A DNA stretch of 64,000 bases from Arcobacteraceae bacterium (GTDB lineage Bacteria > Campylobacterota > Campylobacteria > Campylobacterales > Arcobacteraceae), in the NCBI GenBank assembly GCA_048268245.1, contig JBLWVX010000010.1, positions 9,961 to 73,960 of the forward strand, written 5' to 3'. The notes beneath the pieces are model-generated. The model searched no databases. It was not told the DNA's origin and was given only the letters and a program-made list of their open reading frames with translations. Positions 5,882 through 52,765 of the stretch are shown in pieces. Each line of letters begins with the position of its first letter. Positions within the stretch are counted from its first letter, which is position 1. The translations under genes and the position numbers were made by a program.

Positions 5882-6570
5882 TGTTTGATTTACTTTTAAA
5901 TATTGAACTAACACCTTTTTATATCTCTTTTAAGTTGGCACTTATTACAACTATTATTCTATTTATAATTGCCCTACCCTTATCATGGTGGCTTAGCCAG
6001 AGTAATTCAAAAGTAAAACCTTTTATTGAAGCAATTACAGCATTACCTATTGTATTACCTCCATCAGTAATTGGTTTTTATATACTTTGGGCATTATCAA
6101 GCAACTCTTATATAGGAGCTTTCTTTGAAGAGACTTTTGGAATACAACTTGTGTTTAATTTTACAGGCTTAGTAATAGCTAGTTGTTTTTATAGTCTTCC
6201 TTTTATGGTTCAACCCTTACAGAGTGGTTTTGAAAACCTAAATAAAAATATGCTTGAAGCAAGTTATATAAGTGGTAAAAGTAAACTAATCACCCTATTT
6301 AAAGTAGCACTACCAAATATCAAACCTTCACTTTTAACTGCACTTATTGTAACTTTTGCCCATACTGTAGGCGAATTTGGTGTAGTTTTGATGATAGGAG
6401 GAAGTATTCCAGGTGAAACTAAAGTGGCATCTGTAGCTATATATGAATTTGTTGAAATCTTGGATTATGGTATGGCCCATGTATATAGTGCTATTATGTT
6501 AGGACTTAGCTTCTTAGTATTACTAAGTGTTTATATTTTTAATGCAAAACAGAAAAAGAGTTTTATTTAA
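5881..6570 (+). CDS. modB: Molybdate ABC transporter permease
   Basis: LPIVLPPSVIGF, FAHTVGEFGVVLMIGG. Confidence 0.95.
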   Translation: MFDLLLNIELTPFYISFKLALITTIILFIIALPLSWWLSQSNSKVKPFIEAITALPIVLPPSVIGFYILWALSSNSYIGAFFEETFGIQLVFNFTGLVIASCFYSLPFMVQPLQSGFENLNKNMLEASYISGKSKLITLFKVALPNIKPSLLTALIVTFAHTVGEFGVVLMIGGSIPGETKVASVAIYEFVEILDYGMAHVYSAIMLGLSFLVLLSVYIFNAKQKKSFI

Positions 6571-6645
6571 TTTCAATATGAAATACTTTTATAAATAAAT
6601 TATAATTTATGTTATCATAAGCTTTGATAACAATTAGGATTACTT

Positions 6646-7038
6646 ATGAAAGACTATGATAAATGGAATAAAGTTAAAAAAGAGACTTCAAACCAAAATA
6701 ACTTCTTTACTTTTAAAGTTAGAGAAATTTATTGGCTAAAGGTTGGATATAACATAGGATATGAAGTATATGGGAAAGGAGATGACTATTTAAGACCAGT
6801 GTTAATTTTAAGAAAATTTAGCAAAGAAAGCTTCTTAGGAATTCCTTTAACAAGTTCAACGAAAAAGGATATGTTTCATTATGGATTTTATCCCCTAAAT
6901 AAAGATAAAAAGAATTATGCCATGCTGTCACAAATAAAACTGTTTTCTTCAAAAAGAATACACGATAAAATGGGTAAAATTTCTGTAGAAGATTTTAAAA
7001 AGTTAAAAGTAAATTTAAAAGAATTAATTGGATTATAA
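6646..7038 (+). CDS. PemK/MazF-family toxin (endoribonuclease fold) with no adjacent protein antitoxin
   Basis: REIYW..GYNIGYE..GKG...RPVLIL...GIPLTS...AMLSQIK..SSKR MazF-like motifs; only 75 bp upstream, no antitoxin ORF. Confidence 0.85.
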   Translation: MKDYDKWNKVKKETSNQNNFFTFKVREIYWLKVGYNIGYEVYGKGDDYLRPVLILRKFSKESFLGIPLTSSTKKDMFHYGFYPLNKDKKNYAMLSQIKLFSSKRIHDKMGKISVEDFKKLKVNLKELIGL

Positions 7039-7039
7039 A

Positions 7040-7085
7040 TACTCCCCTAAAGATTAGGGGCTTCCTGCAAGCAGGTTGGTTTGTA
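7040..7085 (-). ncRNA. Putative small RNA convergent with pemK (candidate RNA antitoxin), copy 1
   Basis: Minus strand ACAAACCAA-CCTG(CTTG)CAGG-AAG-CCCCTAA(TCT)TTAGGGG downstream of a perfect promoter; same design recurs at 52358-52400. Confidence 0.6.
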
Positions 7086-7090
7086 AGAGA

Positions 7091-7119
7091 ATTATATAAC
7101 AAAAGAATATATATGTCAA
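7091..7119 (-). promoter_or_regulatory. Perfect-consensus sigma70 promoter pointing toward the pemK 3' end
   Basis: Reverse complement reads TTGACA-tatatattcttttgtta(17 nt)-TATAAT. Confidence 0.8.
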
Positions 7120-7131
7120 GAAAGGAAAAAA

Positions 7132-8913
7132 GTGGAACTTGTTTATTTATGGATTAAAGATTATAAAAATATAAAGGAGCAAGGGTTTAATTTCTCTCCT
7201 AGGTTTGAGTGTAAATATGATAAAGATTCAAATAAGTTGACTATTGATGAAAATAAAAAGTATGTTAATATTTTTCCTGAAAATATTAATGTTACTGCTA
7301 TTGTTGGTGAGAATGGGAGTGGGAAAAGTACTATTTTAAAATATATAGCACAATATTTATCATTATTATTAACTAGAATAGATTCAATAGCACTTTCTCC
7401 AGATACTTTTATTTTTATTTTTTTTGATAAATTATCAAATAATATTTATACTGCAGGAAATGTTCTAGAAGATACTCATATAATAAATAAAACTGTATAC
7501 AAAACTTTCTCGAATAAGATAGAAACATTTAAGTCAAAGAAATATATTGATTTTTTAAAAAGTAAAAAACATGATAAAATGATAAGTCTTGATACAAATG
7601 AAAGATACAATAACTCTATACATAAACACCTTCTTAAAAAAAATTTAAACAAATTAATAAATAATTCCTTTACACTCCACTATGATTATTCTTTTAATAT
7701 GTTTACAAACTATCATAGTGAAACTAATTTTTTATCTGTGCCTAATAAGGAGTACGATATTTATCAACATCATAATTATGATAAAACTTTATTAGTTGAA
7801 CACATAATTAATAAGTCATACATTGAAAAAGAGAAAAAATACTTTGAACCAAGTAAACTCTTAATATTGTTTCAGCCACTTAAAAATCTTAAGTTTCAAT
7901 TTAAACAAAACATGAGTATTAAAGAATTTATGGTGTTTCTAATTAATAGCAGTATCTTTGAATTATTGAAAAGACAACATAGAAACTTTATCAATAATAA
8001 AAATGCTGAAAATAATCCAGAGTTATTAGACAATTTAATAACTAATAATATTAAATCAATTAAAGAAATTATAGATAATCAAACAAAACAAGTTCCCTTA
8101 GCATATCAACTAAAAGATTTAGTTAATTATCTAAAGATATTAAAAAAAACTAATTCTTTAAACATCTTTTCAATTGATAAAGAGTATGAGAGGATAAATA
8201 TAAATATTAATTATCTTAATGATAATAACATTAAACTTTTAACACAAATTCCTACTGATATATTAAAGCTAAAAATTTATTCAGATAATTTTGATTATGA
8301 TGATTTAAGTAATGGAGAAAAATCAGCTCTTAGAATAAGATTTTATATTGAAAGAGCAATACAAAATAGCAAAAGAGACAATTATTTTATTTTACTTGAT
8401 GAAGCTGATAATGAACTACATCCGCAATGGCAAAAAAAGCTTATTAAATATCTATATGACATTTTTAAAAATAGAAGAGAAACTTTTCATTTTATCTTAA
8501 CTTCCCACTCACCTTTTATACTTTCAGACTTACCAAAAGAAAATATAATTTTTCTAGAAAATGGGAAGCAAGAATACCCATTTAAAGATAATGAGCAAAC
8601 TTTTGGAGCAAATATACATACCCTACTTTCCCATGGTTTTTTTATGGAAGATGGTCTCATGGGAGAATACGCAAAAGAGAAAATAAATGAAGTTATTGAA
8701 ATATTAAAGCATGATAGTTTATCTTCTGATGAAATAAAAACTTGCAAAGATATTATCTCAATAATTGGTGAGCCAATTTTACAAAAGACCTTACAAAGTC
8801 AATTAGATATGAAACTTTATCCAAAAGAAACTCAATTAGAAAAACTTGAAAGAGAACAAAGAGAAATTCAAGCAGAAATAGATGAGCTAAAGAAAAAAAA
8901 TGAAACAGATTGA
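7132..8913 (+). CDS. ABC/AAA-type ATPase, Septu PtuA-like defence protein
   Basis: Walker A GENGSGKS, signature LSNGE, Walker B ILLDEAD, LHPQWQ, TSHSPF; overlaps a downstream HNH gene. Confidence 0.8.
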   Translation: MELVYLWIKDYKNIKEQGFNFSPRFECKYDKDSNKLTIDENKKYVNIFPENINVTAIVGENGSGKSTILKYIAQYLSLLLTRIDSIALSPDTFIFIFFDKLSNNIYTAGNVLEDTHIINKTVYKTFSNKIETFKSKKYIDFLKSKKHDKMISLDTNERYNNSIHKHLLKKNLNKLINNSFTLHYDYSFNMFTNYHSETNFLSVPNKEYDIYQHHNYDKTLLVEHIINKSYIEKEKKYFEPSKLLILFQPLKNLKFQFKQNMSIKEFMVFLINSSIFELLKRQHRNFINNKNAENNPELLDNLITNNIKSIKEIIDNQTKQVPLAYQLKDLVNYLKILKKTNSLNIFSIDKEYERINININYLNDNNIKLLTQIPTDILKLKIYSDNFDYDDLSNGEKSALRIRFYIERAIQNSKRDNYFILLDEADNELHPQWQKKLIKYLYDIFKNRRETFHFILTSHSPFILSDLPKENIIFLENGKQEYPFKDNEQTFGANIHTLLSHGFFMEDGLMGEYAKEKINEVIEILKHDSLSSDEIKTCKDIISIIGEPILQKTLQSQLDMKLYPKETQLEKLEREQREIQAEIDELKKKNETD

Positions 8914-9778
8914 TTTATCTATAGTAAATGATGATTTTTTAGAAAGCTATTATAACTCTATAAATATAGAAAATATAAAAAAAGAGCTTAGTGATAGAAA
9001 ATATAAAAAAATCACTGATAATTTAGAACTTCTAATAAAAGCCGATTTAAGTGAAATTAAAAGCAAACTAAATTTATGTGATAGCTATTCATTTGAAGAA
9101 AAAAAAGAAATCAAAAAAGCTTTTAACTATTCAAACCATAGACAAAATGAAAAATTTATGGAACATTTCAAAAAGTTAAATATAAGAAGTTGCCCTTTTT
9201 GTAACAACAACTATGTATACTTTTACAAAAAAAAGAAGGATAAATATAATACAATAGCAACACTAGAACACTACTATCCAAAATCAAAATACCCTCATCT
9301 ATCTTTATCTTTTTATAACCTCATTCCTTCATGTAATACTTGTAATAGCAAGTTCAAAGGTAATGATAGTCATGAAGGAAATATACTTCATCCATATTTT
9401 GAAGATTTCAGTGAAAAAGTCAAGTTCTATATAAGCGTAAATGCACTTCCAGTAGATAAAGATATAAAATTAGAAGTTAATCTTCACACTGATGATACTC
9501 GAAGTAAAAAAACTATTGATAGGTTCCAATTAAAAGAAGTATATTCAGAACATGATGATATGGCAAAAGAGATATGGAATAAAGCACAAGCATACAATGA
9601 GTCAAGAATTGAAGAACTATATGAAAGTTTTTTCAAAGACTTAAACTATACAAAAGAAGATGTTAAAAATATGGCTTTTTGTAACTATTTACATGAAGAT
9701 GATATTAATAAAAGAAACCATAGTAAATTAACACAAGATATATTAAAACAGTTTGATTTAATAAAAGAGAATAAATGA
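8900..9778 (+). CDS. HNH endonuclease, Septu PtuB-like
   Basis: CPFCN...LEHYYPKSKYP...NLIPSCNTCNSKFK, LHPYFE. Confidence 0.82.
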   Translation: MKQIDLSIVNDDFLESYYNSINIENIKKELSDRKYKKITDNLELLIKADLSEIKSKLNLCDSYSFEEKKEIKKAFNYSNHRQNEKFMEHFKKLNIRSCPFCNNNYVYFYKKKKDKYNTIATLEHYYPKSKYPHLSLSFYNLIPSCNTCNSKFKGNDSHEGNILHPYFEDFSEKVKFYISVNALPVDKDIKLEVNLHTDDTRSKKTIDRFQLKEVYSEHDDMAKEIWNKAQAYNESRIEELYESFFKDLNYTKEDVKNMAFCNYLHEDDINKRNHSKLTQDILKQFDLIKENK

Positions 9779-30966: not shown

Positions 30967-33900
30967 TTGCTAAAAAATTATGAGCAAAAAAAGGTAATAA
31001 TTATGAGTAGATTTGATAAAATATTTTACACCATTGTAATATCATTAAGTATTTATGTAACTGTAGGATTTAAACTAATTCCATATATTGTTGAAGACCA
31101 ATTAGTAAAAAATCTTGACAAAACGCTAACCCTAAAATCTCACGTTAAAAAAGTAGATTTTAACCCTTTTACATTTCATGCAAAGATACATGATTTTAGA
31201 TTAGGAGATTATGATAAGCCAACTGTTTCTTTTGAAGAGTTTGCTTTAGATTTTGGAGTTTTACAGTCTTTATTTGAATTACATATAAATATAGAAAATG
31301 TATCACTAAAAAGTGCATTTGTTGATGTGGTACAGCAAAAAGATGGAACAATCAATCTTACAAAACTTTTAAAACCATCAAAAGATGAACCAATAAAAAA
31401 AGAACCCACAAAAGAAGAAAATAATTTAGCCTTTTTAGTTTCAAAACTATCTTTAATTGATACAAAAATAAACTATACAAGACTAAAAGAAAATGATCCT
31501 TTCTTTTTATCAATTGATGATATAAATTATACTTTATATGATTTAGGTAGTTTTGGAAACCCTTTATCATCAAATAGCTTTGCTTTAAATATAAATAAAA
31601 ACTCTAAACTACTAATTCAAGGTGCTTTTAGACTTCAACCTTTTACTATGTATGGTAAAGCAACTCTAGAAAATCTAGAACTTGCAAAGCTTTTAGAGTA
31701 TGAAAAAGAGATGCTAAACTTCACAATTGATAAAAAAGCAAAGTTTAATACTGTTGTTAACTTTGATATTACTACAAAAGATGAGTTTAATCTAGAACTT
31801 TTTACAGATAAACTAAACCTATCAAATCTAAATATCAACAGTCAAAACAAAGATATTTTAAAATTAGCAAGTTTTGATATAAAAAGAGTTGATTTAAACC
31901 TAAAAGATGAAGACCTGAAAGTATCAGGTGTGACTTTATCAACACCAATTATAAATTTACTACAAAATAAAGATGGACTAAATATCACAAAACTAGTAAA
32001 CTCAAACGATAAAGAAGAAGAAAAAAAAGAAGAATCAAAACCAAATAACTGGAAAGTAAATGTATCAAATATCAAACTAGAGAATGCAAGTTTAAACTTT
32101 AAAGATACTGTAAATAACTTAGAAGTTAAAAACTCAAACTTTTCTTTTAATACTGATACAGTAAATCTAAAAGGCTCACAAATTGATTTAAGTAATCTTT
32201 CATTAAACAATCCAAAGCTTTCATTTACAGATAACAAAAATAGACTTAATATAGATAGTAAAAATTTAAATATCAAACTAAATAAATTAGCTTTAATTGA
32301 TAATAAAATAGCTATAGATAAACTAGGTATCACAAAAGAAAGTTTAGCTTTAAAAGATAGAAAAAATGCTATGTATATAAACACAAATAAAACTTCTTTA
32401 AACCTGAACAATATAAAAGTAGCAGATGGTAAGACATCAGTAAGTTCTGTAAACTCAATGATTAAAACAATAACCTTAAATCAAACAAGAGAAAAACAAA
32501 AAATAAATATAAATAACTTAGGACTTAATGTAAATAGCATAAATCTAAATGGTCAAAATATAAGCATTGCAAAAGCAAAAATATCAAAACCATCAATCAA
32601 ACTTACAAATCAAAAATCAAATAGCCTAATAAACGCAAGAAATATTCAATTAAGTTTAAATGATATTAACAAAAACTCAAAACTAATAAGAGTTAAACAA
32701 CTAAGATTAAATGAACCAAATTTAAGTATTTACAATACAAAAGAGAAAACTAAAATAAATACTTCAAATATAAATGTTTTAGTAAAAGATATAAAAAGCT
32801 ATACAAATGGTCTTTTAAGTGTTGCTAGTACAGATATAATAAATCCAAAAATATCTATATCTCTTCCTAAAAAAGCTAACAGTACTGCAAAAAAAGAAGA
32901 GGAAACAAAAATAAAACAAGCAAATAGTAAAAACAATGCGAAATTAAACATAGGACCTGTTAATATCAAAAATGGTTCTTTAGCATTTGAAGATAAAAAC
33001 CTACCTCTTCCTTTTAAAACTACAGTATCAAAGCTAAATGGTCAAATCTCAGAGTTAGATACTACAAAAGCTAGTAAAACAAGACTGAAAGTAAATGGCG
33101 TTGTTGATAAATATGGAACTACAAAGATTACAGGTGTTGTAAATCCAAATGACATAAAAGTATTAACAGATGTAAACATGGTATTTAAAAATATCTCTAT
33201 GAAAAACTTCACACCTTATACTTCAAAGTTCATAGGTAAAGAGTTAGATAGTGGTAAGCTAGATTTAGATTTAAAATATAATATTCAAAAGTCAGATTTA
33301 GATGCTCAAAACTCAATTGTTATCACAAAAATAGAGTTAGGGAAAGATGTAAAAAGTGATGATGCTGTTTCGCTTCCTCTTGGTTTAGCAATTGCGCTAC
33401 TTGAGGACTCAAATGGAGTTATAGATTTAAATATACCAGTATCAGGAAATGTAGATGACCCTAAATTCCAAATAGGCTCAATAGTATGGAAAGCTTTTAC
33501 AAACTTAATTATGAAAGCTGTAACAGCTCCATTTTCACTTCTAGGAGCAATGTTTGGATTTGATGAAAATGAAATAAAAAGTGTAAATTTTGATTTTGGA
33601 AAAAGTGAAATTACTCCAATACAAAAAGAAACACTTGATAAAATATCTAAAATTCTAAATAAAAGACCAAATTTAGCTTTAAAACTTGTAGCTTCATATG
33701 ATGAGTCTAAAGACATGTATGCAATGAAAAAATCAAACTTCGAAAAACAAATAAAAGCAAAAATACCAAATGATCAAATAAGAGATTATGAAAAAAGATA
33801 CCTTGAAGTTATGATGTCAATGTACAAAAAATTTGACAAAAAGTTAAGTTCTAAAAAAAGCTTCACTAAAGGTGGAAAACTAAACACAAAAGAGTATAGT

Positions 33901-52323: not shown

Positions 52324-52352
52324 TTGACAAAAATATTTTACTATGTTATGAT
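52324..52352 (+). promoter_or_regulatory. Near-consensus sigma70 promoter pointing toward the 3' end of the deleted pemK
   Basis: TTGACA (52324) + 17 nt + TATGAT (52347) with extended -10 TG. Confidence 0.75.
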
Positions 52353-52357
52353 TTTTT

Positions 52358-52400
52358 ATAATTCGCCTACGGGCACACCCACTTTTTTAAGTGGGGCTAA
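52358..52400 (+). ncRNA. Putative small RNA convergent with the pemK remnant, copy 2
   Basis: ATAATTC-GCC(TACG)GGC-ACA-CCCACTT(TTTT)AAGTGGG; same two-hairpin layout as 7040-7085. Confidence 0.6.
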
Positions 52401-52500
52401 TTAAATCTTTAGACTTACTAATCACTATTTTAAAATCATTTGTATTTGTAGTTTTTTTGATGACATTCCAATCATCAAAAGTTTGCGTGAGTGTTTTCAT
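52387..52500 (-). pseudogene. Internally deleted PemK/MazF-family toxin (37 aa)
   Basis: GGAGG RBS; MKTLTQTFDDWNVIKKTTNTNDFKIVISKSKDLISPT joins equivalents of the N-terminus (YDKWNKVKK) and C-terminus (EDFKKLKVNLKELI) of the 6646 protein. Confidence 0.75.
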
Positions 52501-52561: not shown

Positions 52562-52765
52562 TTAGTTTTTATTTTCAGTAGTGAAGATAAGTTTTGCTTC
52601 ATCTAAAAGCTTTTGAGCCTCATCTAGTTCTTTCATTCCATTTTTATATACATCTAGTGAATCACTTAGTGTGATTTCTGGATTTGAAAGTTTATCTAAA
52701 AGATTTTTTGCTTTTATTATTTTGTCTTCAAATACTAATTTTTCTTCTTTTATTTCTTCGCTCAT
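52562..52765 (-). CDS. xseB: Exodeoxyribonuclease VII small subunit
   Basis: FEDKI...LSDSLDVYKNGM...LDEAKL; follows metX. Confidence 0.88.
   Translation of the reverse strand: MSEEIKEEKLVFEDKIIKAKNLLDKLSNPEITLSDSLDVYKNGMKELDEAQKLLDEAKLIFTTENKN

Follow-up and report, generated by a model that had tools for sequence, protein, structure and literature searches.

How is a toxin of the MazF/PemK family kept in check when no antitoxin gene lies beside it? MazF/PemK proteins are textbook type II toxins, and the question is raised by a 130-codon gene in a 64-kb stretch of an Arcobacteraceae contig (hereafter the window; all coordinates are window positions unless a plasmid is named). A preliminary description, made from the sequence, had noted an intact MazF-fold gene with no space for a protein antitoxin, and had proposed that a single, non-repetitive RNA, encoded convergently just past the toxin stop codon, takes the antitoxin's place. 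Our analysis bears out this anatomy and the constant pairing of the RNA with the toxin. It suggests that the locus is probably a chromosomal MazF-fold toxin with an antisense small-RNA antitoxin that acts by pairing with the toxin mRNA, of the same family as CJpv3/CjrA from the Campylobacter jejuni plasmid pVir.

The toxin open reading frame (ORF) is intact, and its product matches the Pfam family PemK_toxin (PF02452) with an E-value of 8e-9 and 36.1 bits, against a cut-off of 23.1. A 15-member family profile matches EndoA/YdcE of B. subtilis and MazF of S. aureus at E ~1e-5. Across the 15 aligned sequences, R50 is invariant (15/15) and pairs with the RPV Arg of EndoA, and position 69 holds T or S in 15/15, with T69 aligning to the catalytic-loop Thr of EndoA; our assignment of R50 and T69 presumes that the Arg and Thr at these positions are catalytic in MazF. 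The AlphaFold2 (AF2) model has a mean confidence (pLDDT) of 80.2, and a Foldseek search with it returned MazF-family chains for all of the top 50 matches (probability 1.0, TM-score 0.60-0.78). The protein also bears an N-terminal extension of 25 residues that is conserved in the clade, with W7, N8 and K11 invariant, and which the AF2 model renders as a helix at low confidence. No PADLOC or NCBIfam model matches the protein. Its relatives are publicly annotated as 'type II toxin-antitoxin system PemK/MazF family toxin', a label that is misleading for a clade without a protein antitoxin. Upstream, a molybdate-type ATP-binding cassette permease gene (modB) ends at 6570, leaving a gap of 75 bp, and downstream the next gene starts at 7132, leaving 93 bp; an antitoxin ORF was sought in both gaps and none fits.

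The 93-bp gap instead holds the predicted gene of a small RNA. Its consensus sigma-70 promoter lies 53 bp beyond the toxin stop on the opposite strand, where the preliminary description had placed it, and matches at all 12 positions. An exact TTGACA-17-TATAAT occurs nowhere else in the window, where 0.07 would be expected by chance and where 5/100 shuffles contain at least one. The predicted transcript of ~43 nucleotides (nt) would begin with the 5' tail ACAAACCAA, followed by hairpin A, CCUG(CUUG)CAGG, a 3-nt linker, AAG, and hairpin B, CCCCUAA(UCU)UUAGGGG, the end of which is 5 nt from the toxin stop; the predicted RNA 3' end falls ~4 nt short of the stop codon. Fold prediction of the 43-nt RNA returns exactly these two hairpins, which had been described in the same places. 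Neither a tRNA nor a tmRNA was found at the site. The Rfam search that the preliminary description had proposed matched no family at gathering score in the window, and scans of eight loci, pVir included, gave nothing at E <= 1. A 35-codon ORF with a TTG start on the RNA strand was considered as a peptide gene and rejected, as it begins upstream of the predicted RNA start.

In AT-rich DNA, a chance promoter-like match followed by the ordinary hairpins of a gene end could look much like this, and the fold of the window copy taken alone is weak (z = -1.75; 12/200 shuffles fold as well), so our case rests on comparison across loci. That comparison refutes the chance explanation, to which we give practically no credence: the exact consensus is expected 0.07 times per window, and the whole unit recurs with covariation in well over 100 loci.

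Toxin matches were found in 65/184 Arcobacteraceae genomes, spanning 18/22 genera; many of these genomes carry several copies, and many copies have internal stop codons. In a sample of the phylum, 68/401 genomes had matches, the weakest of which are probably ordinary MazF proteins. A script applied to 35 toxin 3' ends from the first 34 loci (one further row was left out for masked bases) found the order promoter, hairpin A, linker, hairpin B in 33, and the spacer is 17 nt throughout; homologues thus do carry the promoter and hairpins whose absence the preliminary description had named as evidence against it. In the other two the unit is visible by eye. We then used R1, a covariance model built from 31 Arcobacteraceae RNA copies, which matched these two as well. 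R1 recovers the window copy at 55.1 bits (E 8e-8) and gives 65 matches in 56/60 sources, convergent to the toxin and directly after it; the non-matching sources (L054, L061-L063) show, by eye, a divergent version of the convergent TATAAT promoter and other hairpins.

Beyond these genomes, a search of a species-representative genome collection with a 6-row alignment retrieved 465 toxin relatives, almost only from Campylobacterota; a relatives search with the L. salivarius protein found nothing. Among the best 80 of the 465, nearly all from Campylobacterota (Sulfurimonas, Sulfuricurvum, Sulfurovum, Helicobacteraceae, Sulfurospirillum and others), 76 have an R1 match on the minus strand that starts within a few nt of the toxin end. 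In the remaining 4, the unit was seen by eye in two and is cut by contig ends in two. Over 146 aligned copies the -35 box is TTGACA in 49 and TTGACT in 27, TATAAT at 17-nt spacing occurs in 82, and the motif A-C/U-A-A-A/U-U of the single-stranded 5' tail is kept in 100 (ACAA in 82). The stop codon lies <=16 nt from the end of hairpin B in 31/33 scored loci, and inside the hairpin B loop in ~10. Several loci have two or three RNA genes on the same strand within ~1 kb (L012, 663-744 and 890-971; L058, 1880-1963 and 2079-2161; L094, three at 18-100, 530-621 and 1088-1176), and in some of them there is apparently no intact toxin between the RNA genes.

The hairpins are conserved as structures rather than as sequences. 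In two alignments, A3 and A6, of 62 and 84 distinct rows, 94.6% and 96.9% of cells are paired, percentages that are inflated because the alignments were fitted to the model; slid-partner controls lower pairing to 30-73%. Compensatory changes on both sides occur in 9/9 pairs of the 62-row set and 7/9 of the 84-row set, both helices covary, and the covariation score was reached by 0/500 shuffles. Two further signals are independent of the fitting bias and tell which strand folds. G-U pairs outnumber A-C mismatches by 30:7 and 39:4 in the 62- and 84-row sets, and since A-C mismatches would be G-U pairs if the toxin-sense strand folded, this ratio distinguishes the strands. Moreover, in 41/62 rows the loop of hairpin A is UUCG or UACG, closed by a C-G pair, and in 72/84 it is UUCG; the sense-strand equivalents, CGAA and CGUA, are not especially stable. 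Because of the G-U excess and the UUCG/UACG loops, the antisense strand is taken as the folded one, and on this comparative evidence RNA structure is selected on the antisense strand and not on that of the toxin mRNA.

A transcribed relative of the RNA is known from a plasmid. By tblastn against plasmids, the toxin has a match on pVir of C. jejuni 81-176 with 39.7% identity and 88% query coverage (E 1e-15; NC_005012, 30651-30992), in a gene annotated as PemK/MazF family toxin, and further homologues occur on other Campylobacter, Helicobacter and Nitratiruptor plasmids. The pVir toxin is followed by a stop-abutting hairpin, two more hairpins, and TTGATT-17-TATAAT on the opposite strand. From this promoter we predicted an RNA start near 31119 of the second pVir record, which equals the published start of CJpv3, a Northern-positive small RNA of 77 nt on the pVir minus strand (31119-31043) between pVir0047 and pVir0048 (Dugar et al. 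2013, Table S12). In the same study the start-site step height is 16164 for CJpv3 and 28 for the toxin start (30608), a signal ~580 times the toxin's, and the listed promoter sequence puts the CJpv3 start 7 nt after the -10 box (Dugar et al. 2013, Table S5). The 3' end of CJpv3 falls 2 nt past its final hairpin, which leaves 4 nt to the toxin stop codon. R1 detects this RNA at 28.7 bits (E 7.6e-4), though built from Arcobacteraceae copies only. By analogy, the start and end given here for the window RNA (~7084 and ~7042) should be placed like those of CJpv3. A search for RNA runs that contain the window sequence found none; three runs contain a small share (0.08) of it. Where papers citing Shen et al. 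(2016) mention CjrA of strain 81-176, they present it as an antisense RNA that serves as the antitoxin of a pVir-borne type I system. We infer that CjrA is CJpv3 and that CjpT is pVir0047, because CJpv3 is the sole pVir small-RNA candidate convergent to a toxin-like gene; none of the papers searched mentions cjpT and cjrA side by side. The window module is thus very probably a member of the published CjrA/CjpT type I family (Shen et al. 2016, Mol Microbiol 101:909).

These data suggest how the module might work. The toxin would be a MazF-fold endoribonuclease expressed from a weak promoter, and the consensus promoter past its stop would supply a large excess of the two-hairpin RNA. Complementary over its whole length to the toxin mRNA 3' end, this RNA would pair there, and the pairing would lead to cleavage or destabilisation of the toxin message, in the manner of type I systems that overlap at the 3' end, such that little toxin would be made while the RNA is present. 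We favour this type I-like scheme because of the convergent, stop-abutting placement and the promoter strengths on pVir; convergent orientation and a stop-abutting position are required of an antisense RNA, and not of a protein-binding one.

Several observations weigh against the scheme. In most loci the RNA stops short of the toxin stop codon, which would confine pairing to the 3' untranslated region (UTR); UUCG loops are ill suited to loop-loop contacts; and hairpin B has no U-tract terminator after it. Complementarity between the RNA and the translation start of the toxin is no greater for cognate than for non-cognate pairs (mean -14.2 vs -14.6 kcal/mol, median rank 0.56, over 87 RNA/start-region pairs that include some near-duplicates), and on this result we rejected the idea that the RNA also pairs in trans around the ribosome-binding site of the toxin. 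The weak fold of the window copy and the model-fitted alignments count here too, as does the equation of CjrA/CjpT with CJpv3/pVir0047, which is no more than probable.

Some of these points suit a type III-like alternative, in which the RNA binds the MazF-fold toxin directly, perhaps as a pseudo-substrate through its 5' tail. MazF enzymes recognise short single-stranded motifs, for example ACA or UACAU, and the tail motif is kept while the hairpin sequences differ, although shared descent, or its place as the initially transcribed sequence, may be all that this conservation reflects. The UUCG hairpin, which is very stable, resembles a structural scaffold more than a pairing element, the RNA stops short of the toxin coding region, and RNA copies remain without toxins. 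Direct binding nevertheless leaves the convergent, stop-abutting placement, invariant in ~150 loci, needless; neither tandem repeats nor signs of ToxI-like processing were found, and hairpin B varies freely between clades in which the toxin core is conserved. The description of CjrA as antisense and type I, as worded in the citing papers, also speaks against it. Overall, we regard direct binding as possible but unlikely.

A pair of homologues outside Campylobacterota bears on the same alternative. On two Lactobacillaceae plasmids (L070, 1612-1790; L171, 1150-1260), toxin homologues of 29-33% identity lie after a DUF3800 gene, and directly after the toxin stop follow a same-strand sigma-70-like promoter, hairpins and a conserved stretch shared by both; in L070 a terminator follows the element as well, and an Rfam scan of this locus gave no match. 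Such an element is unable to be antisense, which favours protein binding, and it may be a same-strand RNA partner in Firmicutes, a lead from two loci only.

Two bolder forms of RNA control can also be put forward, with similarly low expectation: the RNA may be a non-repetitive, convergently encoded type III-like antitoxin of a true MazF, acting via its ACAAUU tail and UUCG scaffold, or a duplex at the stop codon may give rise to non-stop toxin messages that are then cleared. If either were true, a Campylobacterota-wide 'type II' MazF clade, comprising the 465 relatives from the species-representative collection, would be RNA-controlled.

The fate of the two genes offers a further view of their relationship. 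In 151 family genomes, R1 marks 106 places in 66 genomes, of which 78 are convergent to a toxin match <=80 nt away. We inspected 20 of the 28 others, and most adjoin toxin remnants. Three are fusions of ~18 to 37 codons in which the first and last toxin codons are joined (L071, L073, L078), others have C-terminal or N-terminal toxin pieces beside the RNA (L076, L077, L079-L081, L084, L085, L089), and two place the RNA beside a divergent 165-aa PemK-like protein of ~25% identity (L072, L074). One is masked (L075), and in six nothing is recognisable. Conversely, nearly every toxin 3' end examined carries the RNA. If the RNA protects against the toxin, decay should remove the toxin first and leave the RNA, and this is the order seen. 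The divergent PemK of L072 and L074 (~200-710, read in the direction of the toxin) has a terminator-like hairpin of its own, and this and further hairpins separate its stop from an RNA gene of the standard form.

The genome from which the window comes displays the same decay. R1 makes three good matches in the 2.68-Mb assembly, all adjoining toxin genes or remnants, and only copy 1, described above, has an intact toxin. Copy 2, which the preliminary description had recognised as a sequence-divergent copy of the same structure at 52324-52500, is a real second copy of the predicted RNA gene (R1 86.2 bits, E 6e-14; fold z = -4.2) with hairpins GCC(UACG)GGC and CCCACUU(UUUU)AAGUGGG, and its toxin is a remnant. 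In the remnant, an internal deletion of ~306 nt has left the N-terminal codons (..FDDWNVIKK..) and the final ones: set against L004, an orthologous locus that is intact, copy 2 has nearly identical flanks and a nearly identical RNA gene but lacks the centre of the ORF. Copy 2 lies after xseB (Pfam Exonuc_VII_S), as do the intact copies of L004, L029 and L032. Copy 3, on another contig (C13), has a toxin 43% identical with a TGA at the invariant Trp codon, and an RNA gene with CCCAUC/GAUGGG, UCC(UACG)GGA and TTGCAT-17-TATAAT. The three RNAs differ in sequence and have a common architecture.

Beyond RNA copy 2, the radC found there in related genomes is cut to ~28 codons, and because of this the xseB-toxin-RNA-radC stretch would seem to be decaying in this genome, the RNA gene excepted. 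The remnants of L071, L073, L078 and copy 2 are independent, and all are clean internal deletions that join first to last codons. By eye, short DNA words in the N-terminal ..DF(D/E).. codons recur unchanged in the C-terminal ..DF(E/K).. codons, a sign that the remnants may have arisen by recurrent deletion between microhomologies.

The sites that the module occupies vary: it follows modB at copy 1 and xseB or cysN at other loci, lies on both sides of full-length radC, or sits between gmd and fcl. Because of this variety, the module appears to behave like a selfish cassette of small size. In 9/35 family rows radC lies upstream and overlaps by ATGA, and these loci retain the RNA gene. RadC was considered as a protein antitoxin and rejected, since it is a full-length housekeeping-type RadC by Pfam, is present in some loci only, and has modules on both sides. 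Two loci show fusions in which the RNA promoter and hairpins are still there: in L054 (1486-3252, minus strand) the toxin domain lies in frame at the C-terminus of a CysN-like GTPase of 588 aa and has no start codon of its own, and in L050 (406-1884, minus strand) the toxin frame continues across the RNA gene into a GDP-fucose synthase (fcl), giving 492 aa.

Such neighbourhoods raise a further explanation, in which the RNA is no antitoxin at all and serves as a terminator, insulator or antisense regulator of read-through into the genes beyond, in the window the pair at 7132-9778, or in which the protein is not toxic. In many loci the downstream gene on the toxin strand starts 10-30 nt from the -35 box, and the module occurs inside operons (between gmd and fcl, after cysN, around radC), two observations in favour of this explanation. 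The downstream genes, however, vary by locus whereas the pairing of toxin and RNA is constant, and the RNA is retained beside toxin remnants. Moreover, a terminator of the toxin gene would act on the mRNA strand, and the structure is selected on the other. Citing papers, where they mention it, also call the RNA antitoxin of strain 81-176 functionally characterised. We therefore consider this explanation distinctly improbable, more so than direct binding.

The antisense scheme assigns the toxin gene a weak promoter, and a promoter-like site of 10/12 matches is found upstream; stand-alone toxin homologues have, by eye, a similar AT-rich motif. Between its -10 box and the ribosome-binding site lies a perfect 8-bp inverted repeat, which could be a 5'-UTR hairpin or an operator. 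Different hairpins are seen by eye at the same spot in other clades, so the family as a whole may have structure in the toxin 5' UTR. Downstream of the module, the next two genes match PDC-M62A (E 6e-107) and PDC-M62B (E 9e-56), a PADLOC candidate defence system; the pair has weaker similarity to PtuA/PtuB (Septu, retron Ec78 effector) and encodes an AAA ATPase and an HNH nuclease.

Table 1. Positions of the toxin-RNA module, its second copy and neighbouring features in the 64-kb window.
Feature	Position	Strand	Basis
Toxin gene, MazF/PemK-fold protein of 130 aa	6646-7038	+	Pfam PF02452, family profile, AF2, Foldseek
Consensus sigma-70 promoter of the small RNA, TTGACA-17-TATAAT (-35 at 7119-7114, -10 at 7096-7091)	7091-7119	-	12/12 match
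Predicted small RNA, ~43 nt	~7084 to ~7042	-	Fold; ends by analogy with pVir CJpv3
Hairpin A	7075-7064	-	Fold
Hairpin B	7060-7044	-	Fold
R1 match, copy 1	7033-7119	-	Covariance model
Copy 2 RNA gene (promoter TTGACA-17-TATGAT at 52324-52352, predicted RNA 52358-52397)	52324-52397	+	
Copy 2 toxin remnant, 37-codon ORF	52387-52500	-	Alignment with intact orthologous locus L004
Putative weak promoter-like site of the toxin gene, ATGAAA-17-TATAAT	6578-6606	+	10/12 match; function presumed
Perfect 8-bp inverted repeat, TGTTATCA, 7 nt, TGATAACA	6610-6632	+	Read from sequence
35-codon TTG ORF (rejected)	6995-7102	-	
PDC-M62A	7132-8913		PADLOC
PDC-M62B	8900-9778		PADLOC
radC remnant, ~28 codons	52224-52310	-	
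xseB	52562-52765		Pfam Exonuc_VII_S

The preliminary description could not check whether the module had been described before. The prototype was mapped in 2013 and very probably reported as an RNA antitoxin in 2016, so the locus is very probably not a new kind of system. What appears new is how widely the family is spread in Campylobacterota, the conservation of its two-hairpin UUCG architecture, and the pattern of decay; a literature search, mostly of abstracts, found no paper on a family-wide module of MazF with a convergent small RNA. These data argue that the 'type II' annotation of the toxin clade should change, as a conserved convergent small RNA stands in place of a protein antitoxin in a clade that spans Arcobacteraceae, Sulfurimonas, Sulfuricurvum, Helicobacter and Campylobacter plasmids. 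The compact motif (consensus promoter, UUCG hairpin, stop-abutting hairpin) is ready to be made an RNA family. A single C. jejuni example thereby becomes a family whose natural variation can be used to separate antisense action from protein binding, and the toxin-less RNA copies are a record of module decay.

Among known systems, B. subtilis txpA/RatA and bsrG/SR4 and E. faecalis fst/RNAII likewise consist of convergent genes, with complementarity between the RNA and the toxin mRNA at the latter's 3' end and with a strong antitoxin and a weak toxin promoter. Their toxins are small hydrophobic peptides, whereas the window toxin is a soluble MazF-fold protein, well above the < ~60 aa of the classical type I trait, and its overlap with the RNA is apparently confined to the 3' UTR. 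The geometry of the window would fit the type I trait of cis-antisense overlap, provided that the toxin mRNA runs on past 7042. Protein nuclease toxins checked by antisense RNA are known in E. coli SymE/SymR and RalR/RalA; SymR overlaps the 5' end of its target, and the toxin folds are unrelated to that of the window. The type III systems (ToxIN, AbiQ/antiQ, CptIN, TenpIN) resemble the window module in having an RNA antitoxin, no protein antitoxin and a distantly fold-related endoribonuclease. Their RNA, however, is a tandem-repeat one, upstream on the same strand and cut by the toxin, in place of a single convergent downstream gene; Tandem Repeats Finder, run for ToxI-like repeats at the locus, detected only a 12-nt unit x1.9 inside the ORF, and Pfam and Foldseek group the window toxin with true MazF and not with ToxN. 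With type II MazEF/PemIK it has the toxin fold and catalytic residues in common, but the window has no MazE/PemI gene and its toxin has the conserved N-terminal extension. The Rfam pemK RNA motif (RF02913) is likewise an RNA element linked with pemK genes, and it is among the families without a match in the window or the eight scanned loci. The closest likeness is to CjrA/CjpT on pVir, which has a homologous PemK/MazF toxin (pVir0047), no protein antitoxin, and a convergent sigma-70-promoted RNA gene directly after the stop, with its 3' hairpin abutting the stop codon; its RNA is far more abundant than its toxin mRNA, as is predicted for the window. The pVir RNA is 77 nt long with three hairpins and no UUCG loop, against a predicted ~43 nt and two hairpins here. 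Finally, pVir is a conjugative plasmid, whereas the window copy is chromosomal, set between a molybdate transporter gene and a Septu-like pair.

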